Shown here: piece after piece, positions 3,057-39,899 of the stretch
Numbering within the stretch: the first letter of the stretch is position 1
Layout: each line of letters begins with the position of its first letter
DNA from: Chloroflexota bacterium
GTDB lineage: Bacteria > Chloroflexota > Dehalococcoidia > DSGV01
Assembly (NCBI GenBank): GCA_021787985.1
Contig: JAJYLG010000001.1
Span: forward strand, 50,163 to 114,162
Length of the DNA: 64,000 nucleotides
Reading direction: 5' to 3'
Notes under the pieces: model-generated
Told to the model about the DNA's origin: nothing
The model's input: the letters and a program-made list of their open reading frames with translations, nothing else
Databases searched by the model: none
Translations under genes and position numbers: made by a program

Positions 3057-3110
3057 GCCACCACCTTCTTGCGCACCTGTCACCCACTCCGTGCCTATTT
3101 CGGCTTCAGG

Positions 3111-7486: not shown

Positions 7487-7495
7487 CCGGCCTTC

Positions 7496-9424: not shown

Positions 9425-9470
9425 TGTCCCCCCACCCGTCCCTCGGATCCGCGTAAGGATGGCGTTTCCG

Positions 9471-10643: not shown

Positions 10644-10788
10644 GATCACTCCCTTGCCAGTGTTGGGATGCCCGCTCGCGCCTGGTCAGGCGAGATGCCG
10701 GGCCGGATGCGGCCGCACCTGGCGGAGAGACGCGACAGCCGGGCAACATCCGCGCGCAGCCTGGCTGCAGCCGTTGCCGGCGCCTGAG

Positions 10789-11520: not shown

Positions 11521-11526
11521 GGCGGG

Positions 11527-11555
11527 ATTATCGACTATCGGTCATACTGGGTCAA
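11527..11555 (-). promoter_or_regulatory. Sigma-70-like promoter (TTGACC-N17-GATAAT) carrying the conserved 14-mer CGATAGTCGATAAT, directly upstream of the GntR start
   Basis: In gene orientation the -35 TTGACC is at 11550-11555 and the -10 GATAAT at 11527-11532. The predicted TSS falls at the A of the GntR ATG. The same 14-mer and ~50 nt of flanking similarity recur at 15661-15700. Confidence 0.55.
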
Positions 11556-11685
11556 GACGGCCGCCGCTCCCCCCGCCGGGCCCGCGCCGCCCCACTCGTC
11601 CGCGGGCTCGCTGCGCCTGGGATGCCGCTCGCCGGTTGCGTCGGGGCCCGCCAACCGCCCCGTCACCGAAGGGAGTGCTCGTTCG

Positions 11686-12831: not shown

Positions 12832-12860
12832 GCCTCGCGCTCGTGGGGCTGACGTCAGGT

Positions 12861-14096
12861 CTATTCAAAGATCCCCGCGGCCTCGTAGGCTGCCATCTCG
12901 TCGTCCGAAAGGCCGAGGATCTCGCGGCAGACCCAGTCCCGCGCTTCCCCCAGCAACGGCGCCGCTCGGCGCGGCTGCGCGACCAGGTCGGAGAAACGGA
13001 ACGGGCTGCCGTGGCATCGATACCTGCCCATCTCCGGGTGGTCCAGCACCGCAAACGTGCCGCGGAAGCGGAACTGTGGGTCCGCGAAGAGATCTTCCCC
13101 TTTCGCCACTGCGGCCGCGGGCACGCCCACCGCCTGCAGCCGACGCACGAGGTCGTTCGCCTCGAACCCGGCGGTCCAGGCGGCGAGCGTCGCCTCGAGC
13201 GCGTCCTCGTGCCGTTTCCGCTCCAGGAAGGTCGCGAAGCCCTCGTTCTGGCACAGATCTTCCCGCCCCATCTCGGTGCAGAGCGCCGACCACTGCGCGT
13301 CCGTCCGCACCGCGATGGCGACCCAGCGGTCTTCACCCCGGCAGGGGAAGACCCCGTGGGGAGCGGCGTACGGGTCTCGGTTGCCTCGGCGCACCGCGGC
13401 GGCGCCGCGAGTGGCGGGAAGCTGCTCACCCAGCAGGCCCGGAAGCGCGAACTGGCAGGCGACCTCGTACTGCGAGAGATCAACGTACTGTCCCCGACCC
13501 GTCCGCCGCCGGTACTCCAGCGCGACGAGCACAGCCACGGAGACGTAGTGCAGCGCGATGAAATCCGCGTACGCGGAGTACGGCCCGGTGGGTGGCCGGT
13601 CCGGCCAGCCGGTGACCTCGTACCAGCCGGTGAGGGCGGATGCCTGCTGGCCGTAGCCGCGGTGCGTGGCGTGAGGGCCGGTTTGCCCCTGCAGGCATTC
13701 GCTGACCATGATCAGGTCCGGACGAACCCTCCGCAGATCTTCGTACGCAAGCCCCCAGCGTGCCATCACTCCGGGCACGAACGTCTCGACGACCGCGTCC
13801 GCCCAGGGAAGCAGGCGCTTGAAGAACTCGCGCGCGGCTGGCTTCTGCATGTTGAGCGCCAGGGAACGCTTGTCCGAGTTGTAGACGGCGAAGTAGCCGC
13901 TGCGGTTCAGTCCTCGTACGTCGCCCGCATACGGTGAACCGAGTCGCGTGGTATCCGGGTGCACGCTCGATTCGACGCGCAGCACCGTCGCGCCCCACAT
14001 GGCCAGCAGCTTCGTGGCGGCCGGCCCGGCCACGGTCGTGCCGAAGTCCAGGATGTGGACGCCTTCCAGGGGCAGTGTGGGTCGTTCGCCGGCCAT
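12861..14096 (-). CDS. Family III CoA-transferase, paralog 3
   Basis: Contains ...VHILDFGTTVAGPAATKLLAMWGATVLRVES... and ...RRTGRGQYVDLSQYE..., the CaiB/BaiF fold signature. Confidence 0.8.
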   Translation of the reverse strand: MAGERPTLPLEGVHILDFGTTVAGPAATKLLAMWGATVLRVESSVHPDTTRLGSPYAGDVRGLNRSGYFAVYNSDKRSLALNMQKPAAREFFKRLLPWADAVVETFVPGVMARWGLAYEDLRRVRPDLIMVSECLQGQTGPHATHRGYGQQASALTGWYEVTGWPDRPPTGPYSAYADFIALHYVSVAVLVALEYRRRTGRGQYVDLSQYEVACQFALPGLLGEQLPATRGAAAVRRGNRDPYAAPHGVFPCRGEDRWVAIAVRTDAQWSALCTEMGREDLCQNEGFATFLERKRHEDALEATLAAWTAGFEANDLVRRLQAVGVPAAAVAKGEDLFADPQFRFRGTFAVLDHPEMGRYRCHGSPFRFSDLVAQPRRAAPLLGEARDWVCREILGLSDDEMAAYEAAGIFE

Positions 14097-14097
14097 C

Positions 14098-15357
14098 TCA
14101 GACCACCCCCAGGGCGAACAGCAGCTCGAGCTCTTGCGAGCTCAAGCCGAGCTCATCCACGAGCACGGCACGGTTGTGCTGCCCGAGTCGGGGTGCCGGA
14201 CCTCGGACGACCCAGGGTGCGCCCGTGGTATGAACCGGCACCCCGGGATACCGCAGCACGATCGCTCGTGCCGTGTCCGCGACCTCTCGCCAGGAAGCGC
14301 GCGCCGCAAGCTGGGGGTCGGCGAGCACGTCCGCCAGCGTGTTGACCGGGCTGAACATGTGTCCGTCGCGGACGGCTGCTTCCAGGAGCTCCGCCTTCGT
14401 CTTGGTGCGCAGGAAAGCGGTGAAGGGCTCGAGGAACCGGTCGACCTCATCGGGGGGTAGGCCCGCGGGATCGAAGGTGGCCCAGTCGGTCTGCTTGAGC
14501 CATTCCGGTGCCGCGCCTTCGGAATCCATCCACTCCATGAGCTTGCGGGCGGTCCGTGCGCCGCCGTAGAAGGTCATGAACATCCAGACCACCCAGCCAT
14601 CCTTGCATTGATAGAGGGTGCGCGAGCGGCGTCCGGGGCCGAGGTCGCGCCACATTCCTTGTCGCTGGAGATTGACGCCGCTGAGATCGGCGAACGCGTA
14701 GGTGTGCGTCAGCATGGACAGCGGCACCTCCTGCGCCGCCACGTCGACGTGTTCGCCGTGGCCGGTTGCGAGGCGGCGAAAGTGGGCCGCGAGGGCGCCG
14801 ACCACGCCGGCCATCGCCAGGTGCAGGCTTGCCTGCGGCGGGAGCCCCACCCGCAGCGGCGCCCGGTCGGGATCCCCGACCATGTGCATGTACCCGCCGA
14901 GCGCCCAGGTGAGCAGGTCGTCCCCCGCGTACGAGCGATACGGCCCTTCCTGCCCGTACGGCGTGAGCGACACCAGGACGACGCGTTCGTTCTGCGCCCT
15001 CAAGTCTTCGTAGGCGAGTCCGCGCGCCGCCAGATAGCCGGGCGGAAACCCTTCGACGACGAAATCCGCCCCCGAGACGAGCTTCCGGAACAGCGCCTGG
15101 CCGTCGCGAGTGTCGAGGTTTAGCGTGACGCTCTGCTTGCCGGCGCCGTATCCCAACCAGAACAGCCCGCGCTCGAGGCCCGGCTCGCCGTCGGCGAACG
15201 GGCCGAGGCGGCGAGCCGGGCTGCCCCCCGGCGGCTCAACCGCGATGACCCGCGCCCCCAGGTCGGCGAAAGTGCGGCCGAAGAGCGCCGTCTCCGTCGT
15301 CGCCAGCTCCAGCACGACATAGGGCGCGAGCAGGTCCTCGTGTGTCTCGTTGGCCAT
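14098..15357 (-). CDS. Family III CoA-transferase, paralog 4
   Basis: Starts at the ATG at 15355-15357 (MANETHEDLLAPYVVLELATTETALFGRTFADLGARVIAVEPP...) with a GGAGGA RBS 13 nt upstream. The in-frame upstream extension to 15660/15708 is low-complexity. Confidence 0.75.
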   Translation of the reverse strand: MANETHEDLLAPYVVLELATTETALFGRTFADLGARVIAVEPPGGSPARRLGPFADGEPGLERGLFWLGYGAGKQSVTLNLDTRDGQALFRKLVSGADFVVEGFPPGYLAARGLAYEDLRAQNERVVLVSLTPYGQEGPYRSYAGDDLLTWALGGYMHMVGDPDRAPLRVGLPPQASLHLAMAGVVGALAAHFRRLATGHGEHVDVAAQEVPLSMLTHTYAFADLSGVNLQRQGMWRDLGPGRRSRTLYQCKDGWVVWMFMTFYGGARTARKLMEWMDSEGAAPEWLKQTDWATFDPAGLPPDEVDRFLEPFTAFLRTKTKAELLEAAVRDGHMFSPVNTLADVLADPQLAARASWREVADTARAIVLRYPGVPVHTTGAPWVVRGPAPRLGQHNRAVLVDELGLSSQELELLFALGVV

Positions 15358-15660
15358 TTCGCTGCTCGTTTCCTCCAAGCCTGCCTCCTCGGCGAACGAT
15401 GAGGTCGGATTGTCCACGGGGGCTCCCTGCTCGCCTCGGTGGCCCGTAACTTCCCTCGCCGCCGGCAGCAGGGGCCGACGCGCGGCGGCGCAGGAGGGAG
15501 CGTGGACGGGCCTTGCCGATGCTTCGCCGGCGCGGCGAGCCGCGGTCGCAGGCGAGGCCGGCAGTTCCTCCGCAAGCAGCCCATGCTGCCGAACGAGGGT
15601 GGGCCAGCGGCGGAAGGAGCGCGGCTGGCGCGGGCAACAGAGAGCGGCCCACCGGGCCAT

Positions 15661-15689
15661 ATTATCGACTATCGACCAAAATGGATCAA
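15661..15689 (-). promoter_or_regulatory. Second copy of the promoter/operator element (TTGATC-N17-GATAAT with CGATAGTCGATAAT)
   Basis: This is the same architecture as the 11527-11555 element. It lies ~300 nt upstream of the CoA-transferase 3/4 gene pair. Confidence 0.5.
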
Positions 15690-15770
15690 CGCCGCCCCCG
15701 CTCCCCACGCTTCACTGCGCCCGCCACCTCGCACTCGGCGGCTTCCGATGATTCGGGCAGGCATCCGCGC

Positions 15771-19432: not shown

Positions 19433-21751
19433 TTACGCCCGCTGCCCCGGTTCTGTACGTTCCCTCGAAGACGAGCGCCGGACACGGGCGGCACGCGGCG
19501 CCCTGGTCTTGGTGGGAGACCGTGTGGCCGCGGCGGACAGGTCCGGCGCCGCCGATGGCTCGGGATCCGCAGCGCCGGTGCCCCCGAGCCCGTGGAGGTC
19601 GGGTGGTCGCCGTGCTTCGCCGATCGCCTTCCTGAAATGGCGGGCCGCAAGCGCCAAGCGCTCGGGCTCAGGCTCCTGACCCCGTTCGATCTGCTCCCGG
19701 ACGGCGAGCATGGTCGCCCGGCGACAGACGAAGCCGATGCGCCCGCCGGTCCAGCCGTCCGTGAGGTCGGCGAGCGTCTCCACTTCCACGTCATCCGCGA
19801 GAGGCTTGCCGTTCAGGTGTAGCTGGAAGATCTCCAGCCTCGCGGCCTTGGCCGGGAGCGGAAGCTCGATTACCAGCTCGAACCGACCGGGAGTCAACAG
19901 CGCGGCGTCGATGGCCTCCGGCCGATTCGCTGCCGCCATCACGACGATGCCGTCCGTCTCGGCCAGCTCATCCATCTCGGTGAGAAGCTGGCTAACGATG
20001 CGATCAGTGACTTGCGTGTCGGACGCGGCGTCCCGTGCGGGCGCCAACGCGGCGAGATCATCAAAGAAGAGGATGCACGGGGCGGTAGTCCGGGCGCGGC
20101 GGAACGCTTCCCGCACTCCCTTCTCGGTCTCGCCGAGCCACTTCGAGAGCAGCTCCGCGCCTCGGACAGGAATCAACGTGCTCTTGCTTTCGCCCGCGAC
20201 GGCTCTGGCCAGGAGGGTCTTCCCAGCTCCTGAAGGTCCGTACAGCAGCACGCCTTTCGGCGGTCGCGCTTGCGCCCGCTGGAAGAGCGCTGGATACTTC
20301 GTCGGCCAGACGATGGCCTCGTCGAGCGCCTGCTTCGCCTCTTCCAGCCCCGCCACGTCGCTCCAGCCGGCCCGAGGTGTTTCGCTGGACAGGCCGCGCA
20401 TCGCGGCCGGCTTCAGACCTGCCAGCGCTTCGAAGAAGTCGGCGCCGCTGACGATCAGGCTCTCCAGTGAGCTGGGCGACCAGTCGCCGGCGTTGCCGCC
20501 GGACGGCGCCATCTCCTTCCTCAGGCGCACCATTGCCGCCTCGCGGCACAAGTTGGCCAGGTCGGCGCCGACGAAGCCATGGGTCAGGTCGGCGATGCTG
20601 GCCAGATCGACGTCCGCGGCGAGCGGCATGGGGTGAGTGTGGATGGCCAAAATCTCGAGCCGCCCGGAGGTACCCGGCACCGGCACGTGGATCTCACGGT
20701 CGAACCTGCCAGGCCGGCGCAGGGCGGGATCGAGCATGTCGGGAGCGTTTGTGGCAGCGATGACGATCACCTGCTCCCGTGACTCGAGGCCGTCCATGAG
20801 CGCCATCAACTGCGCCACGACTCGCTTCTCCACGTCTCCGTAGACGTCCTCGCGCTTGAGCGCGACGGCGTCGATCTCGTCGAAGAAGATGACCGAGGGC
20901 GCATTCTCGCGGGCCTCGCGGAACACCTCGCGCAGGCGCGACTCCGACTCGCCATAGAATTTGTGGAAGATCTCCGGACCGCTGACGTGGATGAAGTGGG
21001 CCGAGGTCTCGCCCGCGACTGCCCGGGCGACCAACGTTTTCCCCGTGCCAGGCGGACCGTACAGGAGCACCCCTTTCGGCGGCTCGATCCCCAGCCGTTC
21101 GAAGACCTCTGGATGGAGGAGAGGCAGCTCTACCACCTCGCGCACCCGCTGCAGTTGCAGCGTCAGGCCACCGACATCGGCATAGGTCGTCCGGGGTCCG
21201 GACTCCGACGCACCCACCTGCAGGGCTGTCTCCTCGCAGATCTCAGCCGGGCCCGCCGGCTCCGTCGATTTCACGATGAACTCCGCGGGCCGTAGCTGGT
21301 CATCGTCGATACAAAGGTAGTCGCCCGGCTGCACGACCATGCTCTGAAACCGTGAGCTCAGCTCCTTCGTTCTGTGTCCATCACGATCCGGGAAACCGCC
21401 CAGTGGCACGAGGAGCACTCGCTCTGCGGCCGGGCAGGCGGCGACCTGCACGATCGACGCCGGCTCTCCGAGGTTCACCCGAGCGTTGCGCCGCACCAGC
21501 GCGTCGGCCTGCACGATGCCCTTCCCGCGGTCCGCGGTCCGCGTAGGGTACACCCGCGCGTGGGCAGCTCGCTTGCCGTGAACACGGACGACCTCACCAA
21601 CATGGGCGCCGATGCGCTCCATGTCCGCCGGATCGATGCGGACGATGCCCCTCGCCGCGTCCTCGGTCGGGGCTTCGGCGACCCGGCGCTCGATGCCTAC
21701 TCCGCCGTCCATCCGGTCCCCACCGCGGGCAACGCGGCCATCCTCCGTCAC
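19433..21751 (-). CDS. Cdc48/VCP-like double AAA+ ATPase (Cpa/VAT-like unfoldase)
   Basis: It has an N-terminal double-psi-barrel-like domain and two AAA modules, each with Walker A GPPGTGKT / GPSGAGKT and a second-region-of-homology. The GTG start at 21751 overlaps the upstream stop (GTGA). An alternative ATG start lies at 21712. Confidence 0.85.
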   Translation of the reverse strand: MTEDGRVARGGDRMDGGVGIERRVAEAPTEDAARGIVRIDPADMERIGAHVGEVVRVHGKRAAHARVYPTRTADRGKGIVQADALVRRNARVNLGEPASIVQVAACPAAERVLLVPLGGFPDRDGHRTKELSSRFQSMVVQPGDYLCIDDDQLRPAEFIVKSTEPAGPAEICEETALQVGASESGPRTTYADVGGLTLQLQRVREVVELPLLHPEVFERLGIEPPKGVLLYGPPGTGKTLVARAVAGETSAHFIHVSGPEIFHKFYGESESRLREVFREARENAPSVIFFDEIDAVALKREDVYGDVEKRVVAQLMALMDGLESREQVIVIAATNAPDMLDPALRRPGRFDREIHVPVPGTSGRLEILAIHTHPMPLAADVDLASIADLTHGFVGADLANLCREAAMVRLRKEMAPSGGNAGDWSPSSLESLIVSGADFFEALAGLKPAAMRGLSSETPRAGWSDVAGLEEAKQALDEAIVWPTKYPALFQRAQARPPKGVLLYGPSGAGKTLLARAVAGESKSTLIPVRGAELLSKWLGETEKGVREAFRRARTTAPCILFFDDLAALAPARDAASDTQVTDRIVSQLLTEMDELAETDGIVVMAAANRPEAIDAALLTPGRFELVIELPLPAKAARLEIFQLHLNGKPLADDVEVETLADLTDGWTGGRIGFVCRRATMLAVREQIERGQEPEPERLALAARHFRKAIGEARRPPDLHGLGGTGAADPEPSAAPDLSAAATRSPTKTRAPRAARVRRSSSRERTEPGQRA

Positions 21752-22695
21752 AGCGGTCGGCCGTGCAGGGCCCCGCCCCGCCCTGGGTCGCGGGCATCCG
21801 TCGCTGCCAACGCTGCGTCGAACAGCGCGGACCCGCCAGCCGTGCCACCAGCGGCTGTCCGTTGCAAGTCCAGCTCCCCCAGACGTTCGAGCACCTGCCT
21901 CGTCGTGCTCGTCATGACGGCGTCGATGCCGAGCCCGGTCATCGTCGCGAGCGAGTCGCCCATCTCCTTGGCACGCCGTGCCAGGTGCTGGGCCCCCTGC
22001 ACGATGAAGTAGTCGGCAGCCGTGTCGAAGGTGTTGCCCGAACCGAGCCGCAACGGCCAGACGATGTCACCGAAGCGCTCCAAGTCTATGCCGGCCCTGC
22101 GGGCGGCCATGCCAACCTCCCACAGGAGCGCCGAGTAGCCCTTGGTCCCGACCGAACGGATCATCTTCAGCACCGAGGCCGTGCCGATCCGCTCGTCGAC
22201 GACGACGGCCGCAAGGTTGTATGGCGCCATGCGCTCGGCGAACGACGCGGCGGCCGGCCCGGAGACGTAGAGCGGCTGCCGATGGCCACCGTACACGACG
22301 GCTCCCATCAGCGCCGCGTCGATGAACTGCGCCCCGGCCTGCAGCACTGGGGCCGCGGCCGCGGCCTTCCTGTCGGGCGCGCACGAGTTCAGGTCCACGT
22401 ACATCTGCGGCGCAGACAGAAACGGGGCCGCTCGTTGCGCGGCTTCCACGGCGCTGTCCGTCGTCACCGCCGAAAACACGATATCCGACTCGGCGGAGAG
22501 GGCGGCGATCGTGTCCACGAGCCGGGCGCCCGCTTGGGCGGCGTGGCGGCGGAACGAAGCGGCGTAGGGAGGACGATGGCGCGGCCCATCGACGAAAGCA
22601 ACGATGTTGCGGATCCCGTCCTGCGACAATCCCCTCGCGTGGTGGTAGCCGACCTCGCCGAAGCCGATGTAGCCGATGCGCGGAGGTGTAGCCAT
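21748..22695 (-). CDS. NAD(P)-binding oxidoreductase (6-phosphogluconate/3-hydroxyisobutyrate dehydrogenase-like NAD-binding domain)
   Basis: Starts at ATG 22693-22695 (MATPPRIGYIGFGEVGYHHARGL...), which is a Rossmann GxGxxG motif. The ORF-track N-terminus is Arg-rich. Confidence 0.7.
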   Translation of the reverse strand: MATPPRIGYIGFGEVGYHHARGLSQDGIRNIVAFVDGPRHRPPYAASFRRHAAQAGARLVDTIAALSAESDIVFSAVTTDSAVEAAQRAAPFLSAPQMYVDLNSCAPDRKAAAAAPVLQAGAQFIDAALMGAVVYGGHRQPLYVSGPAAASFAERMAPYNLAAVVVDERIGTASVLKMIRSVGTKGYSALLWEVGMAARRAGIDLERFGDIVWPLRLGSGNTFDTAADYFIVQGAQHLARRAKEMGDSLATMTGLGIDAVMTSTTRQVLERLGELDLQRTAAGGTAGGSALFDAALAATDARDPGRGGALHGRPL

Positions 22696-22711
22696 GTGCG
22701 CGTGTGCCCGT

Positions 22712-23590
22712 CTATCCACGTCCCGCTCCGCCGTCCGGCGGCGACGCCAGTCCGAGCAACTGGCGCGGATTGTCGCGCGCCATGCGGCCGAGGTCGCCCT
22801 CGGAGAGGCCACCATGGAGGAGCTGCGCGATGAACGTGCGGAAGCCCTCCGGCGGCGACGGATTGATCGCCTGCCCCAGGTCCGTTGAGAGGACGCACTG
22901 GTCCGCGCCTACCGCGCGGATGGCCGTCGCCAGCGACTCCACCGTGTGCGTGCCGACGTGATAGGTGCACACCACGTACGCGTGCTCGATGAAAGCCCCG
23001 CGCCGAGCGAGCTCTTGCTGCCAATCGATCGGGATCCACATGTCGGCGTGCGTCACCACCGTGGGGATCCCGCGACGGCACGACTCGCCGACCAGCGCGT
23101 CCTGCTCCTCCACGGAGAGGTGACCCGTTCCCAGGACGAGGCTCCGGTGCTGAATGATGTCGAGGATGTCGAGAACGGCCGGGCGGAGCTTCCCGGTCTC
23201 ATTCAGTACGGTGATTCCCGGGCGACCGTAGCGTTCCCGACTCCAGTGGTCGGCCGTGAACGTCGGCATCCACACCTTTCGGGCGCCGACACCGGCGGCG
23301 ACCTCGACCGCCCGCGGATTGAGGCCGCCAACTGACTCGTTGAGCGTCACGCTGCCGAACACCTCAATCCCGGGGACCATGCGGTTCACGACGTACGCCA
23401 CCGGCGACGTGGGGTACTCGTGGCTCTTGAAGATGAAGCCGCCCATCCCCAGGTCGCGCGCGGCCGACGCCAGGTCGACGATGTCGTGCCTCCGCGGGGA
23501 ACCCGCATCCGGTGCCGCGTGCACATGGATATCGATCGCGCCTCTCAGGATGGCGTCAACCGTGGCGGTGAACTCTCCGTCCGCAACCAC
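22712..23590 (-). CDS. Amidohydrolase-2-type TIM-barrel metal-dependent hydrolase
   Basis: ...AIDIHVHAAPD... gives the HxH metal ligands, and ...GTGHLSVEE... and ...VVTHADMW... follow. At 292 aa it is typical of PF04909-like hydrolases. Confidence 0.6.
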   Translation of the reverse strand: MVADGEFTATVDAILRGAIDIHVHAAPDAGSPRRHDIVDLASAARDLGMGGFIFKSHEYPTSPVAYVVNRMVPGIEVFGSVTLNESVGGLNPRAVEVAAGVGARKVWMPTFTADHWSRERYGRPGITVLNETGKLRPAVLDILDIIQHRSLVLGTGHLSVEEQDALVGESCRRGIPTVVTHADMWIPIDWQQELARRGAFIEHAYVVCTYHVGTHTVESLATAIRAVGADQCVLSTDLGQAINPSPPEGFRTFIAQLLHGGLSEGDLGRMARDNPRQLLGLASPPDGGAGRG

Positions 23591-23599
23591 ATTCCGCTC

Positions 23600-24688
23600 C
23601 TACTCGCGCAAGTCCGCGACGCGCGCGACCGGCGTTCCGTCCCGTCGGCACAGCGCCCGCGTCACCGGACGCGTCTGGTCCCCGAACGTGGGTTGCCAGC
23701 TACTGTGCTTGCCGGCGCCTCCTACCACGATGACGGAGATCGCCTCCGGCGCATCTGCGATGGGCACCATCGTGTCATCTCGGTCTGGGAGCCCATTGCG
23801 GTGCGCCAGGAAGGCCCGGTACTCGGGGCCGAGGCGTCCCAACGGGAACCGTGCCTGCTCGAACAGGAACTGCTTCACCGTGCGCTTCGAGAACCCGTCC
23901 CGGGCAAGCGTGGCGGCGTGCTCTGGCCCCAGGCTCAGCAGCGGCCAGCCACGGCCGAGGAGATTGTTGCTTCCGGCCTCGCCCATGGCGCCCGCGATCA
24001 GGTGGAGGATGCCGATCCCGGTGGTGCTGTAATGGTCCTGAATGTTGTGCGGGCCCTCGCAGCCGAAGACGGTCACCGTGCTGGTGTCTGGCGCGAACCC
24101 GCGCTCGACGTGCAGCGGCTCCCAGGGATTTTGCTCTTCGTTTTCGGCCACGCAGTAGGCGATCTTTGCCGGGTTCCCTTGAGTGGCGCGATCGCCGCGA
24201 CCGGGCAGCCCTCCGCCGATGTTCATCAGGATGAGGCGCATGGCTCTGCCGATCGTTGCGTTCGCGCGAAAGCCCTGGCCGAACGCGTTGTAACCGGCAT
24301 TGATGCTGAGCTCGCGCGCGACTGGCCCGTTGACGACGACCAATGGCGCGACCGGGTGGGTTGTCGCCTGGATCGAGTCGATGTTGAACGCCGGGTCGGC
24401 GATCGCCTCCACTGCCGCGATCACGACCGGTAGGAATTCCGGCCGGCAGCCCGCCATGGCCGCGTTGATCGCGATCCTTTCCACCGTGGCCTCGCCCTGC
24501 CTCGGAGGCAGCACCGCGACGACCTCCTGGCGATCCCGGTCTGTCCAGCCGAGGAGCTCCTCGACGAGGTCCTCGGTGGGCGGCACGATCGGCAGGCCGT
24601 CGGTCCAGCCGCGTTCTTGGTAGAGCTCGTTGATCGCTCGATACGAGTCCTCGACGCGCAGCGTCCGGGCCGCCGCTCCGTCAGCCAC
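23600..24688 (-). CDS. Uncharacterised conserved protein, UGSC-associated partner A (paralog of 31116..32156)
   Basis: It shares N-terminal ...GWTDGLPIVPPTE... and a central ...GQGFRANATIGRAMRLILMNIGGGLPG... block with the paralog. The GTG start (second GTG, 24686-24688) lies 6 nt after a GGGAGGGA RBS and overlaps the UGSC-A stop by 8 nt. Confidence 0.65.
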   Translation of the reverse strand: MADGAAARTLRVEDSYRAINELYQERGWTDGLPIVPPTEDLVEELLGWTDRDRQEVVAVLPPRQGEATVERIAINAAMAGCRPEFLPVVIAAVEAIADPAFNIDSIQATTHPVAPLVVVNGPVARELSINAGYNAFGQGFRANATIGRAMRLILMNIGGGLPGRGDRATQGNPAKIAYCVAENEEQNPWEPLHVERGFAPDTSTVTVFGCEGPHNIQDHYSTTGIGILHLIAGAMGEAGSNNLLGRGWPLLSLGPEHAATLARDGFSKRTVKQFLFEQARFPLGRLGPEYRAFLAHRNGLPDRDDTMVPIADAPEAISVIVVGGAGKHSSWQPTFGDQTRPVTRALCRRDGTPVARVADLRE

Positions 24689-25256
24689 GCTCACTCCCTC
24701 CCTGAACGCCCGGAGCTGGCAGCGGCACGGCGGCGCTCACCGCTGTTGCCACCGCATCGGCGAGGTCCTTCGCCTTCGCCACCACCTCCTCCTCGGGGAT
24801 GCCCCCCAGCGGGTGCTGCGTGAGCGCGATCGGAAGCTCGGGCAGGCCGCGGTTCCGCGCCTCGAGCCGTGCGAGGGCCTGGAACTCGTCCGTACCGACC
24901 ACTACGGTAGGAACTCCCTGCTTCTCGAGCAGGATGGCGCCGTGGATACTCCACGACGTGCACGACCCTCAGTCCGCGCTGCCCACGATGACGAAGTCGC
25001 ACGTCATCAGGTCAGCCAGCACGTCCGGGGGAGGCGGTCCGGCGATGGGCTTCTCCCGCTTCAACACTTCGCGTATGCCGTGAAGCTCCTGCAGCCGCTT
25101 GGCGACCGACAGCATGAGGATGTCCGCGTTCGGCTTGCCGTTGTCCAGGATCCCGACGCGCGCGCCGGCGAGGCTGTCCAGTCGCGGCGCCAGCCTGACG
25201 GAGGCCACCTTGGGTTCGGCCGTCGGGTCATAAACTCTCGTCCAACGCTCGGTCAT
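24681..25256 (-). CDS. UGSC-motif small selenoprotein A (in-frame TGA at 24969-24971)
   Basis: Starts at ATG 25254-25256 with an AAGGGAG RBS. The ORFs 24969..25295 and 24681..24902 are in one frame and joined by a TGA: ...DFVIVGSAD-U-GSCTSWSIHGAILLEKQGVPTVVVGTDEF.... The paralog 32176..32718 has a TGA at the same aligned position. Confidence 0.7.
24939..24957 (-). other. SECIS-like stem-loop downstream of the UGSC-A TGA
   Basis: The mRNA forms GUCGUGG-AGUAU-CCACGGC (7 bp stem, 5-nt loop with GU), starting 11 nt after the UGA. Confidence 0.45.
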
Positions 25257-25366
25257 TGGCGTGCTCCCTTCGCCCTGCTGCTCTTCCTTCGCCACAGTCT
25301 ATGGGAACCCCCGTGCAGGAGGGCGAGACGCGCGCGAAGCTCGCCCTCCTGCATCAAGGTCGGCGG

Positions 25367-26848
25367 TTACTGGCCCTTCCAGGGGCAGGTGTCCGCGGCA
25401 CACGGATAGCCAGGAATGTTGCCGCGGATGCCGTGACCCTTGCTGGTCTCCATGTCGATCGGCGTCATCCCAGGGACCGGGACGAACCCCTTCGCGCTGG
25501 AATCCCAGTGCACCATCTGCACGGTCTCGATCGCCCAGTGGTCCTGGGCGCCGAACACGATTGGGCCGACGCAGAGGCTGCACTTCCAGCTTGACTGCAC
25601 GCTGAAGCCGGTTTGCATCGCATCGACCAGACCTTGCCGGGTCAGGTCCGGGCCGGCCAGCTCGAGGGAGTGGACCAGCATCTGCGTCCAGGCGATCCCG
25701 TCGAGGACGTAGGTGTTGAAGGCCAGCCCGTTCTGCTGCGCCCACGTCTTCGCCGCGGCCACCGCGGCCTCGTCCAGTTGATGGGTGGTGTAGATCCCGA
25801 GGTCAGCGGTCACGTTGTTGAAGTTCTGCGTTCCCGCGGCGACCGCGTTGCTGCTGCTCGCGCTCGACTGAGCGATCACCACCGGGCCGGTGTAGCCGGC
25901 CGTCTCGCGCAGGGCTTTGATGAACGGCACGATCGCGGTGCCCAGGAACGCCACGTAGTCCGGATGGGTGCTCGCGGCCTCCTGGGCTTGCGAGCTCAGG
26001 TCCGACGCGTTGGCGATGTTGTAGGTGATCGTCTTCGCGATCGTTGCGCTGGAGCTCGCCTGCGCCAATCCGACTTTGAAGCCCGCGAGCAGCGGCTGGC
26101 CGTAGGCGTCGTCCTGATAGACGACCGACACCTTCCCGCCGGGCTTCTGCTTGCCGACGTACGTGCCCAGCGCCAGCCCGTCTTCGAGCGCGGCCTGGCC
26201 GCCGCCGAACATCGTGGTGATCGTCGGCTCGGCCACCCAGGGCCCGTTCGCGAACAGGAAGATGTCGGGCACGCCCTTCGAGGCGTAGTACTTGTAGGTC
26301 GCCAGCTCACAGGCGACGCACAGGTTGCCGAACGTGGCGAACACTTTGTCCTGCTCCACGAGCTGCTTGGCGACGTCCGTGCCCCGCGCCGGAGTCCCGG
26401 CATTGTCCAGGTCGATCAGCTTGATCTTCCGGCCGAAGACGCCGCCGGCCTGGTTGACCGCGTCCACCACCTTCTGCATGGTCTGGGCGGTCGGGAGCCA
26501 CTGCGCCATGCCGCCGGTGTGGGGCGAGGAACGGCCGATTACGATGGTGTCCTTCGTTACGCCCGTGCGGTCGTCGCCTGCCGGCCGCGTCTTCGAGAGG
26601 GCAATGCAGTCGTTGATGGTGAACAGTCCGGCGACGCTCCGCGGGTCGCTTGCGATACCGGCCGGGCCGCATTTCCCGTTCCACGTGACGCCCGACGACG
26701 CCGTCGCCGTGTTGGAGGCGGCAGTGCCGGTGCTCCCCGGCTGAGTCGCCTTGGACGACTTGCTGCTGCACGCGGCCAGCGCCATGGCGACGACGGCCAC
26801 CAGCACCAACACGGTCAGCCGGACTCTCGACCTGGTGTAATCTCTCAT
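25367..26848 (-). CDS. ABC transporter substrate-binding lipoprotein (Liv-type periplasmic binding protein family)
   Basis: It has a signal peptide with a lipobox (...VLVLVAVVAMALAACSSKSS) and a type I PBP fold. Confidence 0.8.
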   Translation of the reverse strand: MRDYTRSRVRLTVLVLVAVVAMALAACSSKSSKATQPGSTGTAASNTATASSGVTWNGKCGPAGIASDPRSVAGLFTINDCIALSKTRPAGDDRTGVTKDTIVIGRSSPHTGGMAQWLPTAQTMQKVVDAVNQAGGVFGRKIKLIDLDNAGTPARGTDVAKQLVEQDKVFATFGNLCVACELATYKYYASKGVPDIFLFANGPWVAEPTITTMFGGGQAALEDGLALGTYVGKQKPGGKVSVVYQDDAYGQPLLAGFKVGLAQASSSATIAKTITYNIANASDLSSQAQEAASTHPDYVAFLGTAIVPFIKALRETAGYTGPVVIAQSSASSSNAVAAGTQNFNNVTADLGIYTTHQLDEAAVAAAKTWAQQNGLAFNTYVLDGIAWTQMLVHSLELAGPDLTRQGLVDAMQTGFSVQSSWKCSLCVGPIVFGAQDHWAIETVQMVHWDSSAKGFVPVPGMTPIDMETSKGHGIRGNIPGYPCAADTCPWKGQ

Positions 26849-26939
26849 CCTTTCCTCCCTGCACGAACTCCGAAGCGATGGTCATCGCTAATGACTTCAC
26901 GCGCTTCGCTACGGTGCCTGTTTGTCTGTTCGCACTCCT

Positions 26940-28442
26940 TCATCCGCTGCTTACCCGTTCTCTTTCCCGTGAGACCCCCCGCGTCTGTTCGTCCGCTCCG
27001 ACTCCTCCAGGAACGATCCGCCCGTGCAGCCACTCGCCTACCTCGGCCCAGGAAAGTGCATCGAGGTCGCGAGTGAAGCCGGCGAGACCGCCCGGCATCG
27101 CCAGCACCACGAGCAAGACCGCCGCGCCCGCGAAGGCGGGCTGCAGCGCCACGACGTTGAGAAACGTCGAGGTGATGAAGCGCAGCCCCGCGAGCACGCC
27201 GACGGCGATGACCGCGGCCACCACCACAGCTCCGGTCACGAGACCGGCACGGGTCACGGGGCTGGCAGGCCTCGCCATGAAAGAGCGCGTAGTACGCGGC
27301 AGCACCGACCTCCGCGAGAACCAGAGCAAGACGAGGACCGTGATCAGCGCCACGACCAGCACATCCGCCCAGTTTCGCGAGCCGCTCTGAAACGCGCTGG
27401 AGAAGGCCTGTACGCCTTGTTGGTAGATGTAGACGAGAAAGAAGCCGCCCAGGATGGACCCGAGGATCGACGCCCTGCCGCCGATCACCATCGCCAGCAG
27501 GAACTCGATCGACTGGGTAAGCGTGAACCCGTCCGGCGCCACGCTGCGGTTGTTCAACAGGAACCACAGCCCGCCGGCCACGCCGGCGAGCGCCGCGCTG
27601 ACCACGAAGGCCGAGATCTTGACCAGCGCGATGTCGACGCCCATCGCCGTTGCGGCGTTCTCGTCGTCGCGCGTGGCGGTCAGAGCGCGCCCCGCCGCCG
27701 AACGGACGAGATTGCTGACCAGCCAGATCGCCACCAGCAGCACCAGCAGCCCAACGAAGTAGTGCCACCGCTCCGAGGTCAGCCAGTGCCACGAAACCGG
27801 CGGGCCGAATGCGCGGCTGAACTCGCTCAGCCCGTTGAAGCTGCCGGTGTACTTCTCGAGCTCGTGCACCTGCAGGACCTCCGGGAAGGCGACCGTGATC
27901 GCCAGCGTGACCAGGCCGAGGTAGTGGCCACGCAAGCGGAGGGCGGGCACCCCGATCAGCAGGCCGACAGCGGCGGTAGCGGCCGCGCCGATGGCGACCG
28001 CCAGCACGATGCTGAGGTGCCCCTGTCCCGTGGCGATCGCCGCCGCGTACGCCCCGATCCCCAGCAGCGCCGCGTGACCGATCGAGATCTGGCCGGTGTA
28101 GCCCGTCACCAGGTTGAGGCTGAGGACGATGAGCGACACGACCAGCGCGCGGTCCATCAGGCTGACCGCGAAGGTGCTCTTGGCAACTCCAGGTAGGACC
28201 ACCGCGAACAGCGCCGCGCCGATCGCCCATCCGAGACGTGCGGAGGAAACCCCGCGGCCCGCCTGCGCTCCGCGCCGAGTCCGACGCCACGAGGCGAGCA
28301 TCACCGCGGCGCCGACGGCGCCGACCGCAAGCCCCGCGCGCGGGCCGGCCACGTAGACCGCGAACCACAGCCCCACGATGAGCGCCAGGAGCTCGACCGG
28401 CGTCGGTATGACGGACGCCGTGGCCCAGGCGGCCCGTTTCAT
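26940..28442 (-). CDS. ABC permease, LivM-like
   Basis: It is polytopic, with a LivM-type core ...GYTGQISIGHAALLGIGAYAAAIATG.... The stop overlaps the upstream LivH-like gene start by 4 nt. Confidence 0.8.
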   Translation of the reverse strand: MKRAAWATASVIPTPVELLALIVGLWFAVYVAGPRAGLAVGAVGAAVMLASWRRTRRGAQAGRGVSSARLGWAIGAALFAVVLPGVAKSTFAVSLMDRALVVSLIVLSLNLVTGYTGQISIGHAALLGIGAYAAAIATGQGHLSIVLAVAIGAAATAAVGLLIGVPALRLRGHYLGLVTLAITVAFPEVLQVHELEKYTGSFNGLSEFSRAFGPPVSWHWLTSERWHYFVGLLVLLVAIWLVSNLVRSAAGRALTATRDDENAATAMGVDIALVKISAFVVSAALAGVAGGLWFLLNNRSVAPDGFTLTQSIEFLLAMVIGGRASILGSILGGFFLVYIYQQGVQAFSSAFQSGSRNWADVLVVALITVLVLLWFSRRSVLPRTTRSFMARPASPVTRAGLVTGAVVVAAVIAVGVLAGLRFITSTFLNVVALQPAFAGAAVLLVVLAMPGGLAGFTRDLDALSWAEVGEWLHGRIVPGGVGADEQTRGVSRERERVSSG

Positions 28443-29359
28443 AGCTTGACCACCCGTTTCCGGCCGAATAGTCCCTGGGGCCGGACGATAAGCAGCACCA
28501 CGATGACCACCAGCGCGATCAGGTCACGGTACTGCTGCGGCTGGGCGATGTTGAACGGGAGGTGCAGCCATCGCACCACGTTGCCGAGGTAGACTCCGGT
28601 CAAGCTCTGCAGCACGCCGAGAAGAACGCCACCGACCAGTGTGCCGACCATGCTGTCCAGCCCGCCCACGACCGCCGCGGCGAACGCGAACACCAGGACG
28701 ACGTCCATCATGTTGGGCGTCAGGCTCAGCAACTGCGCCAGAAGCATCCCGGCGACGCCCGCGCACGCGATCCCCAGACCCCAGGCGAGCATCATCATGC
28801 GGTCCGTTGGAACGCCGGCCAGCTCGGCGGCCGTGCGGTTTGCCGCCGTGGCTCGCAGCACCAGACCAAGGCGGGTGTGCCGGAAGAGAAGGTACAGGGC
28901 GAGGACGAGCGCCAGCGAAACGCCGAAGAGGTACAGCGACGCTCGCCCGATGTGCACACCATGCAGGTCGATCGGCGGCCCCGCGAACGGCTGCGGAAAC
29001 GGATGAGGCTGACCACCGTAGATGCCAACGGTCAGCCCGTAGAACACGAACAGCAGTCCCAGCGTGACGATCAGCGGATTGAGCCCGGTGCGCTCCTTCT
29101 CCGGGACCATTCGGATCACCAGGCGCTCCACCAGCGCACCCACCACGAAGGCGACGATCGTGCCGAGCAGGAAGCCGGCCGGGTAGGGCAGCCGGAGCAA
29201 CAACGACCAGGCGATGAACGTCACGAACGTGCCCATCGCTGCCTGTCCGAAGTTGATGATCTCCGTCGCCTGGGCGATGACGACCAGTCCAAGCCCCACG
29301 ACCGCGTAGACGCTGCCTGTCAGTGCACCCGTGATCGTCTGCTGGAGGAGCTGGGTCAT
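28439..29359 (-). CDS. ABC permease, LivH-like
   Basis: Contains MTQLLQQTITGALTGSVYAVVGLGLVVI... and ...INFGQAAMGTFVTFIA.... Four-nt overlaps on both sides. Confidence 0.85.
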   Translation of the reverse strand: MTQLLQQTITGALTGSVYAVVGLGLVVIAQATEIINFGQAAMGTFVTFIAWSLLLRLPYPAGFLLGTIVAFVVGALVERLVIRMVPEKERTGLNPLIVTLGLLFVFYGLTVGIYGGQPHPFPQPFAGPPIDLHGVHIGRASLYLFGVSLALVLALYLLFRHTRLGLVLRATAANRTAAELAGVPTDRMMMLAWGLGIACAGVAGMLLAQLLSLTPNMMDVVLVFAFAAAVVGGLDSMVGTLVGGVLLGVLQSLTGVYLGNVVRWLHLPFNIAQPQQYRDLIALVVIVVLLIVRPQGLFGRKRVVKL

Positions 29360-30168
29360 GTGGAAGCGGCCCCCTGCCCGAGATAGCTTCGTCGTACTTG
29401 TTCGCTGCCGCGCAGCTCCGCCGCCGAGCCGACGGACATGACCGTCCCGGTCTCGATGACGTATCCCAAGTCGGCGATACTCAGGGCGATCCCCACGTTC
29501 GGCTCCGCCATGAGCACCGCGACGCCTTGCTCGCGGTTGATGCGCGTGATGATCCGATAGATGTCCCGGACCACAAGCGGCGCCAGGCCCAGCGATGGCT
29601 CGTCCAGCAGCAGCAGCCGAGGACTGGCCATCAGCGCGCGAGCGATCACCAGCATCTGCTGTTCGCCGCCCGACAGCGTGGCCGCGCGCTGCCTGCTGCG
29701 CTCTTTCAGGATCGGGAAATACTCGAACGCCCGCTCCAGCGCGGTGGCGATCGCGGACCGGCCTCGCGTGGAGTACGCGCCGACCATGAGGTTCTCTTCA
29801 ACCGTTAAGTCCGCGAACAGCGGTCGTCGCTCGGGCACATGGACGAGACCGCGGTGCACCAGTGAGCTCGGCCGCTGTCCCACGATCGACTCGTCCTCGA
29901 ATTCGATCGACCCGGCGTCTGGTCGTGCCAGGCCCGAGATGGCGCGCAGCAGCGTGGACTTGCCGGCCCCGTTTGCGCCCAGCAGGGCCACCACGCCATG
30001 GCGCTTCACTTCGAGGTTGACGCCGTGCAGGACCCGGAGCTTGCCGTACGAGACCCACAGGTCGCGCACCCGCAGCATGGGATGCGCGCCATCTGCCGAC
30101 GCGGTCGCCCGGTCCTCCCCGCGTGAGCAAACACTCGTACCGGCTTCTCCGCCGGCCTTCTCACTCAT
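29356..30168 (-). CDS. ABC ATP-binding protein, LivF-like
   Basis: Has GANGAGKST and LSGGEQQML. The ATG at 30166-30168 overlaps the upstream stop (ATGA). A shorter start at 30078 (MLRVRDLWVSYG) is possible. The ORF-track start at 30297 is an artefact. Confidence 0.75.
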   Translation of the reverse strand: MSEKAGGEAGTSVCSRGEDRATASADGAHPMLRVRDLWVSYGKLRVLHGVNLEVKRHGVVALLGANGAGKSTLLRAISGLARPDAGSIEFEDESIVGQRPSSLVHRGLVHVPERRPLFADLTVEENLMVGAYSTRGRSAIATALERAFEYFPILKERSRQRAATLSGGEQQMLVIARALMASPRLLLLDEPSLGLAPLVVRDIYRIITRINREQGVAVLMAEPNVGIALSIADLGYVIETGTVMSVGSAAELRGSEQVRRSYLGQGAAST

Positions 30169-30965
30169 CAGCCGCCCGATACCGCCGTTTCTGCCACCGA
30201 GTCGAGCTCGCCGAGGTATGCCAGCACCACCGCGGGATCGCGCTGGACCGCGTCCGGCGGGCCATCCGCGATCTTCTGCCCGAAGTTGAGCACGCATACC
30301 CTGCTCGAGATGCTCATGACGAGACCCATGTGATGTTCGACGAGCACGATGGTGACGCCGGCCTCGCGCCTCACGCCGAGGATGACGTCCGCCAGCTCCG
30401 CCACCTCCTCGTGGTTCAAGCCGGCTGCCGGCTCATCGAGCAGCAGCAGCTTGGGAGCCGACATGAGCGCGCGCGCCAGCTCGACGCGCTTGCCCGTCTG
30501 CACGGAAACCTCGCTTGCCTTGCGATAGGCGACAGCGGCCAGCCCGAGCTGCTCGATCAGCTCGCCCGCCCGACGGCGAAGCGCCTGCTCGGATGCCCGC
30601 AGCCGCGCCCACGGAACCATCGAGACGAAGGGGTTGGTCACGGCTCCGGAATGGCCGCCGACGAGGATGTTCTCCAGCACCGACATCGACGGGAAGAGCG
30701 CCACATTCTGGATGGTGCGGGCAATGCCCAGGGCCGCAACCTGCTTCGGCCGAACCGGCCGCAGATCCTTCCCGTCGAACTGTATGGCTCCCGCATCCCA
30801 GTCGTAGAACCGCGAGACGCAGTTGAGCAGCGTGGTCTTGCCGGCCCCGTTCGGGCCGACCACCGCGCAGATCTCTCCGGCCGCGACGTCCAGACTCACG
30901 TCCTGGAGCGCCTGCACACCGCCGAAGCTCAGCGACACGCCACGCACCGAGAGCACCGAGGTCAT
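30168..30965 (-). CDS. ABC ATP-binding protein, LivG-like
   Basis: Contains MTSVLSVRGVSLSFGGVQAL... then GPNGAGKTT... then LLLLDEPAAGLN. Confidence 0.85.
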   Translation of the reverse strand: MTSVLSVRGVSLSFGGVQALQDVSLDVAAGEICAVVGPNGAGKTTLLNCVSRFYDWDAGAIQFDGKDLRPVRPKQVAALGIARTIQNVALFPSMSVLENILVGGHSGAVTNPFVSMVPWARLRASEQALRRRAGELIEQLGLAAVAYRKASEVSVQTGKRVELARALMSAPKLLLLDEPAAGLNHEEVAELADVILGVRREAGVTIVLVEHHMGLVMSISSRVCVLNFGQKIADGPPDAVQRDPAVVLAYLGELDSVAETAVSGG

Positions 30966-31115: not shown

Positions 31116-32156
31116 TCACGGCGCCACCGCCAGGTCACGCACGACGGCCGAGGTCATTTGTGTGTCTCCAAAGTTCGAGCAGACCGTGACGTGATACGGC
31201 TCGTCCCCGCCCGCCACGACCAGCACGATGTCTTCCGGCTGGGCGGCGACGGCATGCTCTTCCGAGATGGCGCGGCGCTCGGGGCGGCCGCCCAGGGCCT
31301 GGATCTCGTCCGGGAAGCGCGACCGCGGCACCTTCGCGTGCTCGTACAGCCATTCCTTGGTGCGCTGCTTGTCGTAGCCCTGGCTCTGGAGCAGATTGGC
31401 GTGGCCGTAGCTCATGATCACCAGCGGATTCCCGTGCTGGAACTCGACGTTGTTGGCGCCCACCTGCCCGAGCGTGTCCGCCACCGCCAGCAGCACGCTC
31501 TCCGCCTTCTTGTAGATGGCGAGGACGTTGGCCGTCCCGATCGCCCCGACGCAGGTAACGACACTCTCGTTCGCAGCGAAACCTCGTTCGACGTGCAGCG
31601 GGGGCCACGGGCTGCGCTCCTCGTCCTCGCCGAAGCAGAACGTGTACTTCCCCGGCATCCCGTGCAGCGCCTGGTCCACGGTGCCGGGAGCGGCGCCACC
31701 GATGTGCAGCATGCAGAGGCGGACCGCCCGCCCGATCGTGGCGTTCGCGCGCCAGCCGGGGCCGAGCAGCCCGCGCTGGCAGTTGATGCCGATCGTGCGT
31801 CGTATCGGCCCGTTGACGATGATGGCGGGTCCAACGGGATTGGTCGTGGTCTGGATGCCGTGGAGGTTGAAATCGGGGATCGCCAGCGCCTCGACCGCGG
31901 CGATAACCGTCGACATGTACTCCGGCAGGCAGCCCGCCATCACCGCGTTGGCCGCGATCGTCTCGATGGTGGCCGCGCCCCCCGCCGGGTCGAGGTAGGC
32001 GATGAGCTCGTCCGGCGGGCGTGCGGTCGCCGCCACCATGGCCGCGACCCGCTCCTCCGTCGGGGGTATCAGGGGCAGTCCGTCTCCCCAGCCCTGGGCC
32101 TGGGCGTAGTCCAACCACCCATCGAGTGAGTCCGGGACCTCTCGAACGGTAGCCAC
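31116..32156 (-). CDS. Uncharacterised conserved protein, UGSC-associated partner B (paralog of 23600..24688)
   Basis: Contains ...GWGDGLPLIPPTEE... and ...GPGWRANATIGRAVRLCMLHIGGAAPG.... It has a GTG start 20 nt after the UGSC-B stop. Confidence 0.65.
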   Translation of the reverse strand: MATVREVPDSLDGWLDYAQAQGWGDGLPLIPPTEERVAAMVAATARPPDELIAYLDPAGGAATIETIAANAVMAGCLPEYMSTVIAAVEALAIPDFNLHGIQTTTNPVGPAIIVNGPIRRTIGINCQRGLLGPGWRANATIGRAVRLCMLHIGGAAPGTVDQALHGMPGKYTFCFGEDEERSPWPPLHVERGFAANESVVTCVGAIGTANVLAIYKKAESVLLAVADTLGQVGANNVEFQHGNPLVIMSYGHANLLQSQGYDKQRTKEWLYEHAKVPRSRFPDEIQALGGRPERRAISEEHAVAAQPEDIVLVVAGGDEPYHVTVCSNFGDTQMTSAVVRDLAVAP

Positions 32157-32175: not shown

Positions 32176-32718
32176 TTACGCTTCCAGCGGGCGCGGCGCC
32201 GCCACTTTGGCGACCACGTCGTCGATCGCGTTCCTGATCACGCCGCGCGAGCTCTCGGTGTCGCCGAACTCGGTTACCTCGGTTGGCGGAAGCACCACCA
32301 TCGGGGAGCTGCTCGCCCCCTTACCCTTGAACGTGACCGTGGCGAGGTTGACGAACCGCTCGGTCACCAGTACCACGGACGGGATGCCCCGTCGAATCAG
32401 CTCGATCGTGTCGTGGACACTCCACGCGGTGCAGGACCCTCAGTTGGCGAGCCCCACGATGGCGATGTCGGCGTTCTCCGTCGCCTGTTGGAGCACGGCC
32501 TCCGACGCGGCGGCGGCGATGGGCACCTCGAACTCGAGGACCTGCGCGACGCCGAACTCATTGACCAGCGTGCCGCGCATCTCGTCGACCAGCTTGTTCA
32601 TGCTCTGCCAGCCGTTGTTGAGAAAGACGACGGACTTGCCCCGCAGGTCTTGCGGGGCGAACTCCGCGGTCACTCGGGTCGCACGAAACGCACCAGCCGT
32701 CGGTTCTACGATCCGCAT
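32176..32718 (-). CDS. UGSC-motif small selenoprotein B (in-frame TGA at ~32440-32442)
   Basis: Starts at ATG 32716-32718 with a GGGAGAAACAC RBS. ORFs 32440..32718 and 32176..32376 are in the same frame: ...DIAIVGLAN-U-GSCTAWSVHDTIELIRRGIPSVVLVTERF.... This is the same architecture as UGSC-A. Confidence 0.7.
32411..32425 (-). other. SECIS-like stem-loop downstream of the UGSC-B TGA
   Basis: The mRNA forms CGUGG-AGUGU-CCACG, 14 nt after the UGA. It is near-identical in shape to the UGSC-A hairpin (loop AGUGU versus AGUAU). Confidence 0.4.
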
Positions 32719-35602: not shown

Positions 35603-36238
35603 TCAGGCCAGCGTGCCGGGGCCCGCGACGTTGACCAGCAGCACGTCGCCCGGGAACACGCCAGTCATCGTGTGGCTCGTGCCGCCGGGGAACACATACT
35701 CCCAGGCGACGCTGGTGCCGCTGGCCACCAGCTCGTAGGCCGTGGTCCAGCTCGTCCCGGCGACGTGGGCCGTCAGGTAGCCCTGGATGGTGGCGGTGCT
35801 GCTCTCCATCGGTCCCTTCCACACCACCACGTTGAAGCCGGCCGCGAAGGATTCGGACGCCGGTGGAGGCGTGGGCGTCGGTGAAGGAGTCGGGCTCGGC
35901 GAAGGTGTCGGCGTCGGCATGGCGATCACGAGCTTGCCGACCTTGTTGGTGCCGGATTCGGTGAACCACATGGCGCCGTCGGGGCCGGTGACGATGCCCT
36001 CGGGGAAGCTGCTGGCAGTTGGGATGGCGTACTCGGTGATGGTCGCGCCGGCTGTCAGTGTCGCCGGCCTGCTAGCGCCAGCCGCCCGACTCGCGGGCAG
36101 CCACCAGCTCCGCGTTGAAGGGGAGCCGCAGGAAGGTGACGCGGGACTCCGCGTCCGGGATGGCCGCGGCCTTGGCCTGCAAGGTAGCGTGGGCTTCATC
36201 GAACAGCTCGTGCGCCCGGCGTCCCTCTCCCAGCGCAC
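35603..36238 (-). CDS. Hypothetical protein with a single Vgb-lyase-like beta-propeller repeat and a Pro/Thr linker
   Basis: The ORF overlaps the 3' end of the SARP regulator gene, and there is no ATG after the regulator stop at 36072. The repeat is ...ITEYAIPTASSFPEGIVTGPDGAMWFTESGTNKVGKL.... Possibly a gene remnant. Confidence 0.3.
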   Translation of the reverse strand: MRWERDAGRTSCSMKPTLPCRPRPRPSRTRSPASPSCGSPSTRSWWLPASRAAGASRPATLTAGATITEYAIPTASSFPEGIVTGPDGAMWFTESGTNKVGKLVIAMPTPTPSPSPTPSPTPTPPPASESFAAGFNVVVWKGPMESSTATIQGYLTAHVAGTSWTTAYELVASGTSVAWEYVFPGGTSHTMTGVFPGDVLLVNVAGPGTLA

Positions 36239-39590: not shown

Positions 39591-39899
39591 GGGAGCATCT
39601 ACCGTCCCGCAGTAGCGCCCGCCGGGCAACGTGGCCCGTCGAGACGAGGAGCGGTTGAACCGCTCTTGCCTTACGTTCTCCTCTAGCAGCGAGAATACCC
39701 CATTCCGGCCGTGACGCCGCGCTCTCGGTGGTGACAGCGAGAACCCCGCGGCCCGCCTTGCGCGGAAGGACGCCCCGCATCCGTCCTACGCCCGGGAGCC
39801 CGGCTGCTCAGGAACCAGAAAGGCAAGCGGTGTCCGGTGGGTGCCGACCGAGTACAACCCGTTGCGGCCGTTGGCGGCCGCACCCTACACTTGCTGCGC

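Follow-up and report, generated by a model that had tools for sequence, protein, structure and literature searches.

A probable UGSC-family selenoprotein gene with an in-frame UGA and a bacterial SECIS hairpin, its second copy and its partner gene

The UGSC family and the gene studied

From the mid-2000s on (2005-2008), UGSC proteins appear in lists of selenoproteins, namely those of Hyphomonas neptunium, of an Olavius symbiont, of the GOS data and of the Sargasso Sea selenoproteome, and in the literature the family is still without a known function. In the GOS study, UGSC-containing proteins form a major selenoprotein family with 255 Sec versus 21 Cys forms, being among the most abundant families and enriched in non-marine samples (PMC2398784). 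The family model NF041046 is included in a 2026 review (PMC13188914). The same source gives constraints for bacterial SECIS (bSECIS) elements: an apical loop of 3-9 nt, a stem of 4-16 bp, a minimum free energy of -7.5 kcal/mol or lower, a UGA-to-loop distance of 16-37 nt and a loop with G at position 1 or 2, in most cases with G or U right after it (PMC13188914).

The gene considered here (copy 1) lies in a 64-kb window, i.e., the whole stretch of DNA that was analysed, and the positions of all features of the locus are collected in Table 1. Its reading frame runs from an ATG at 25256-25254 to a TGA stop at 24683-24681, with the TGA at 24971-24969 as the sole internal stop. The original prediction had joined two ORF pieces (24969..25295 and 24681..24902) across this codon, and the ORF listing confirms that they share one frame. 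The translation gives the predicted context VGSAD-U-GSCTSW, with CDFVIVGSAD before the TGA and GSCTSWSIHGAILLEK after it (in the longer translation, CDFVIVGSAD and, past the TGA, GSCTSWSIHGAILLEKQGVPTVVVGT). A ribosome-binding site at the upstream ATG and a tight coupling to the next gene had been claimed as well; an SD-like GGGAG run is indeed found 8-9 nt 5' of the ATG, and the GTG start of the next gene (24694 or 24688), which we call partner gene 1, overlaps the stop of copy 1. Since TGA is also the ordinary stop of many other genes in the window, the genome is one without a recoded genetic code. Our reading, to which we assign a probability of roughly 0.9, is that copy 1 is a genuine UGSC-family selenoprotein gene and that its internal UGA stands for Sec.

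Table 1. Positions of the UGSC genes, the hairpin, the partner genes and neighbouring features in the window.
Feature	Position	Strand	Basis or remark
UGSC-family selenoprotein gene, copy 1 (probable)	24681..25256	minus	191 codons including Sec; reading frame and NF041046/PF24696 matches
In-frame UGA, probable Sec codon (residue 96, motif U-G-S-C)	24969..24971	minus	TGA column in relatives
Bacterial SECIS hairpin, copy 1	24938..24958	minus	9-bp stem, GUA loop; folding, conservation and covariation
Partner gene 1, conserved, unnamed, ~362-364 aa	23600..24694	minus	start overlaps copy 1 stop
DUF6282 (amidohydrolase-like) protein	22712-23590	minus	PF19799, 201.9 bits
NAD-binding 6PGDH-like dehydrogenase	21748-22815	minus	PF03446, PF09130
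HAAT-type ABC transporter genes, between the two UGSC/partner pairs	25367..30965	minus	ABC_tran, BCA_ABC_TP_C, BPD_transp_2, Peripla_BP_6
Partner gene 2, paralog of partner gene 1	31116..32156	minus	42% identity over 352 residues, E = 1e-85
Second, divergent UGSC-family gene, copy 2	32176..32718	minus	both halves match PF24696

When Cys is put in place of the stop, copy 1 reaches 136.5 bits with the NCBIfam model NF041046 'UGSC family (seleno)protein' (cut-off 125) and 171.8 bits with the Pfam model PF24696 'UGSC family' (cut-off 25, residues 8-173), and both matches span the TGA. The read-through product thus exceeds both curated cut-offs with a match crossing the codon, and the assignment to the UGSC type is borne out. 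Besides the UGSC models, only one sub-threshold NCBIfam match was obtained, to a caspase domain (18.3 bits, cut-off 140). The designation 'selenoprotein A' in the title of the original prediction holds for its UGSC part and has to be dropped where it would mean selenoprotein A of glycine reductase, as the GrdA, GRDB and Prd families gave no match for copy 1 in the Pfam and NCBIfam scans (E <= 0.01).

By a Pfam scan of the other coding-like ORFs of the window, a second UGSC-family gene (copy 2) was found, with 34% identity to copy 1 and an in-frame TGA at 32440-32442 in the context VGLAN-U-GSCTAW. Its NF041046 score is 86.7 bits, which is under the cut-off of 125. A sequencing error or a pseudogene is very hard to reconcile with two independent paralogs that both keep the TGA.

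The Sec column and the hairpin

A search of 5.8 billion proteins gave 39 relatives of copy 1. Many database relatives stop exactly at ...VGSAD, since gene callers truncate them at TGA, and distant full-length homologs read D-C-GSCT there, with Cys at the Sec column (e.g., P0002, P0005, P0007 and P0018). In a genome scan with one genome per species, at least 587 relatives were found; the search patterns left out the Sec column, so that the scan was not biased towards TGA. Each of the best 80 loci of these relatives has TGA as the aligned codon (79 by motif scan and L022, with the motif GSCTTW, by inspection). The 80 loci span Rokubacteria/Methylomirabilota, Chloroflexota/Dehalococcoidia, Acidimicrobiia, Tectomicrobia/Entotheonella, Gammaproteobacteria and others. 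Alignment to UGSC members had been proposed as a check of the Sec codon, and its outcome, TGA in the near relatives and Cys in the distant ones, agrees with Sec. It had also been feared that the homologs might uniformly terminate at this position; instead, a conserved C-terminal half follows the TGA in frame in every one of the 80 loci.

The truncated database entries bear on the reading that the locus encodes two small proteins, i.e., a 95-aa N-terminal one ending at the TGA and a C-terminal one restarting at GTG 24902. A 73-aa ORF with a GTG start (24681..24902) does exist, and gene callers routinely split the homologs in this manner, leaving many entries that end in ...VGSAD. However, homologs of the Cys form run through as one uninterrupted protein, conservation within the family is highest in the residues that separate the TGA from GTG 24902 (GSCTSWSIHGAILLEKQGVPTV), and in the model of a homolog the motif lies in the core of a single domain, which makes two separate products very improbable compared with a single selenoprotein.

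A few relatives depart from the TGA form. Two soil-metagenome sequences have no TGA and keep an intact SECIS hairpin, L081:1944-2474 with TCA (Ser) and L082:132-662 with TTA (Leu), and the protein P0003 has Arg at the Sec position. All of these variants are one base from TGA, and they are either real variants or errors.

Concerning the origin of the locus, the UGSC gene of copy 1 and its partner are nearest to Rokubacteria/Methylomirabilota (67-76%), and the nearest named relatives of the ThrRS gene in the window are Dehalococcoidia/Chloroflexota (65-70% identity). Both groups are rich in TGA-form UGSC genes.

The original prediction had placed a hairpin, GUCGUGG-AGUAU-CCACGGC, 11 nt past the UGA and had ascribed bacterial SECIS geometry to it. 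This stem-loop is present, and it extends to 9 bp closed by a GUA triloop (CGUCGUGGA-GUA-UCCACGGCG), starting 10-11 nt after the UGA. The geometry is likewise supported, because the hairpin covaries and lies within all of the published constraints given above, with its GUA loop, its 9-bp stem, a UGA-to-loop distance of 19 nt and an energy of -12.9 kcal/mol. As a 21-mer the hairpin has z = -5.3, and none of 200 shuffles was as stable; the 61-nt stretch that contains it (z = -0.48) is no more stable than its shuffles, the DNA having 69% GC. Taken by itself, the folding energy is thus a weak argument, as the 61-nt stretch is not unusually stable for GC-rich DNA, and it is conservation and covariation that convince. 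The corresponding hairpin of copy 2 (32412-32426) has 6 bp and a GUG loop in the same register, and its energy of -7.8 kcal/mol is no better than that of shuffles.

For the analysis of covariation, both copies of the window were aligned with all TGA-containing UGSC genes from the motif scan of the 80 loci (n = 87). The helix is paired in 95.3% of the cells of this alignment, and four of its nine pairs are changed on both sides. Compensatory changes of the stem are seen in the paralog type with the GSCSSG motif (G-C to C-G and U-A to G-U), and in L038 and L056 a G-C pair is replaced by A-U. None of 500 column shuffles came up to the alignment in the share of paired cells, in the count of cells changed on both sides or in the covariation score, and all controls with a slid register were far lower. 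Additionally, the Ser codon that provides the closing A and the G-U of the loop is AGU in 87 of 87 sequences; AGU makes up only 3.2% of the Ser codons in the genes of the window (~14,400 codons). An invariant codon that is otherwise rare means that selection acts here on the RNA and not on the protein.

These results weigh on the explanation that copy 1 is a pseudogene or the product of a sequencing error, in which a Cys codon (TGC or TGT) became TGA and the protein was truncated after VGSAD. TGA is just one base from TGC, and the one-base variants in the rare metagenomic relatives (TCA in L081 and TTA in L082) indicate that the position varies or is miscalled. Against this stand the TGA shared by all of the 80 best genomic relatives, a half downstream of the TGA that keeps its frame, a GC3 of 0.82 and its Pfam match, an RNA hairpin under selection, and the paralog in the same window with the same TGA. 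Such an explanation is effectively refuted, and we retain a functional selenoprotein gene.

A last alternative is that the UGA is indeed decoded, with Cys or some other residue being inserted, either by a Cys-charged SelC-like tRNA or through near-cognate read-through at low selenium. In some bacteria, tRNAs are known that bring about such a recoding from Sec to Cys. Nevertheless, the hairpin agrees with what the canonical SelB-type bSECIS model expects and the literature lists UGSC as a selenoprotein family, and insertion of another residue is thus quite unlikely next to Sec. By analogy with the established bacterial system, SelB with Sec-tRNA(Sec) would bind the hairpin inside the coding sequence and the UGA would be decoded as Sec, giving a protein of ~190 residues with a U-G-S-C motif. 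Genes for selA, selB, selD and tRNA-Sec were searched for, and none lies within the 64-kb window; tRNA-Sec was likewise absent from 60 related loci. We infer that the host has the capacity for Sec insertion. For a Methylomirabilota MAG, 63 predicted selenoprotein genes have been reported (PMC13188914).

Partner genes and gene context

Each UGSC gene of the window is followed by a partner ORF of ~360 aa. Neither of the two partner genes has a Pfam or NCBIfam match, and PDB profile searches with the UGSC and partner proteins gave no significant match, so that no close solved or named structural relative of the partner was found in them. The partner family is very large: there are at least 8000 matches in the 90% database, all of them 'hypothetical', and at 50% identity 5857 clusters (E <= 1e-3), 1598 of which have E <= 1e-30. 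A partner homolog adjoins UGSC in 75 of the 80 loci (the best 80 of at least 587), usually directly 3' of it and, in loci of the Acidimicrobiia type, 5' of it.

Natural fusions of the two proteins also occur. In P0301, a Cys-form UGSC domain (DCGSCTSW) is followed by a partner domain, and many entries of 410-460 aa consist of the UGSC half after the TGA and then the partner. These are probably the 'UGSC/Unknown_1 fusion' that the GOS study names (PMC2398784). The U/CxxC redox motif is lost from the UGSC-like domain of two other fusions, P0290 and P0292, and because of these sequences the redox chemistry may be dispensable to the module. In P0314 the partner domain is duplicated in tandem. The invariant residues of the partner are D30-G31-L32-P33 (in a W-x-DGLP-x-x-PPT motif), N75, G80, T110, N143, G147, R148, D166, E182 and W189. 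A cysteine relay in the partner was considered too, and this idea is weakened by the distribution of the cysteines, with Cys81 in 67 and Cys179 in 70 of 78 sequences.

On the minus strand, the order of genes is UGSC copy 2, partner gene 2, two ABC ATPases, two BPD_transp_2 permeases, a Peripla_BP_6 substrate-binding protein (SBP), UGSC copy 1, partner gene 1, the DUF6282 gene and the 6PGDH-like dehydrogenase, all closely spaced and co-directional, and we take both UGSC-partner pairs to belong to one operon. The two ATPases, the two permeases and the SBP (25367-26848) form a transporter of the HAAT (branched-chain-amino-acid) type. The sole sigma-70-like match of the region lies just 5' of copy 2, and one match is what is expected by chance. 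A conserved neighbourhood extending beyond the UGSC-partner pair was sought and not found in the 80 loci, in which SBP and the NAD-binding gene each occur in none and DUF6282 in three; the recurrent neighbour 'clusters' 1 and 3 turned out to be antisense shadow ORFs. The neighbours in other UGSC loci include SDRs, luciferase-like oxidoreductases, enolase-superfamily proteins, amidohydrolases and MFS transporters.

Several further observations concern the arrangement of genes here and elsewhere. Clusters of UGSC paralogs are present in several genomes and all carry TGA: the locus L062 has three UGSC copies (TGA at 4196, 6265 and 7959), and L042, L043, L049 and L077 have a second UGSC copy 3-6 kb downstream. 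Just past the SBP stop in the window there is a 13-bp GC-rich inverted repeat (GCAGGAGGGCGAG...CUCGCCCUCCUGC, 25315-25352, minus strand) without a U-tract, and the 110-nt spacer between SBP and copy 1 folds with -53.5 kcal/mol (z = -2.4); a hairpin formed by the repeat might stabilise the mRNA or act in attenuation. Another in-frame TGA junction of the window (46290-47198 / 47199-48680) was rejected as an ordinary gene boundary, which has its own RBS and a TTG start. A tmRNA gene is found at 45790-46143 on the plus strand, with the predicted tag GEPQLALAA (ARAGORN; Rfam RF00023, 120.5 bits). The region 1-15711 is a dense cluster with three family III CoA-transferases, three acyl-CoA dehydrogenases, a GntR/FCD regulator, a MaoC dehydratase and a second BCAA-type ABC transporter. 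At 36072-39629 (minus strand), beside a tRNA-Val, there is a gene for a regulator of ~1185 aa with BTAD-AAA_16-TPR domains, an architecture similar to that of SARP/LuxR.

The UGSC protein and the downstream ~360-aa partner most likely act as one functional unit, because they are translationally coupled, co-conserved and, in some organisms, fused. To hypothesize from the gene context, the pair would act, via a selenenylsulfide redox step, on a small solute brought in by the importer, either a nitrogenous compound or an organic acid; homology lends no support to this role in solute catabolism, which we infer. Going further, the pair could be a widespread two-subunit enzyme with a flavodoxin-like selenoprotein subunit, duplicated in the window around an amino-acid-type ABC importer, a tentative idea that we consider rather doubtful. 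If true, this arrangement would point to a new reaction that depends on selenium in the breakdown of a solute taken up by the cell.

Comparison with known selenoprotein systems

Copy 1 belongs to the already known UGSC family, and in this respect the finding confirms known biology. More notable are its by-products, i.e., the second copy, the near-obligate, sometimes fused and unnamed partner, and the flavodoxin-like model. For annotation, two genes are recovered whole where standard gene callers give fragments or truncated products, and the organism, which is probably a member of the Chloroflexota, would be marked as a user of selenocysteine. Starting points for finding the function of UGSC proteins are offered by the pairing with the partner, by the fusions and the operon context, and by the flavodoxin-like model.

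Of the known selenoproteins with obligate partners, GrdB and PrdB (the B subunits of glycine and D-proline reductase) offer an analogy only: in them, too, a UxxC selenoprotein stands beside a partner in a context of amino-acid uptake. They differ in that copy 1 has no GRDB, GRDA or Prd match and its partner has no named family, and Grd/Prd accessory genes are absent from the 64-kb window. Regarding the thioredoxin-fold UxxC/CxxU selenoproteins (Trx-like, Prx-like and SelW-like), the UGSC protein has in common with them a Sec/Cys pair two residues apart. The structure of the natural Cys-form homolog P0002 was taken as the model of the fold. It is predicted as a single flavodoxin/Rossmann-like five-fold beta-alpha domain with the motif in the core, and not as a thioredoxin fold. 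In this model, the Sec position falls where strand 3 leads over to the N-terminus of helix 3, and this predicted location after a beta strand and at a helix N-terminus, which is also that of the thioredoxin-fold proteins, is where redox-active UxxC pairs are usually found.

With the SECIS of the E. coli fdhF type (the bSECISearch consensus), copy 1 shares a stem-loop in the coding sequence 3' of the UGA and a loop that starts with G-U. The two sequences are unrelated, the loop of copy 1 being a 3-nt GUR triloop, and binding of SelB to it is a prediction. The closest system is the UGSC family itself, with which copy 1 shares U-G-S-C at the Sec/Cys column and a SECIS immediately 3' of it. There is no essential difference from the described members, apart from a C-terminal tail that is 15 residues longer in copy 1 and overlaps the next gene.
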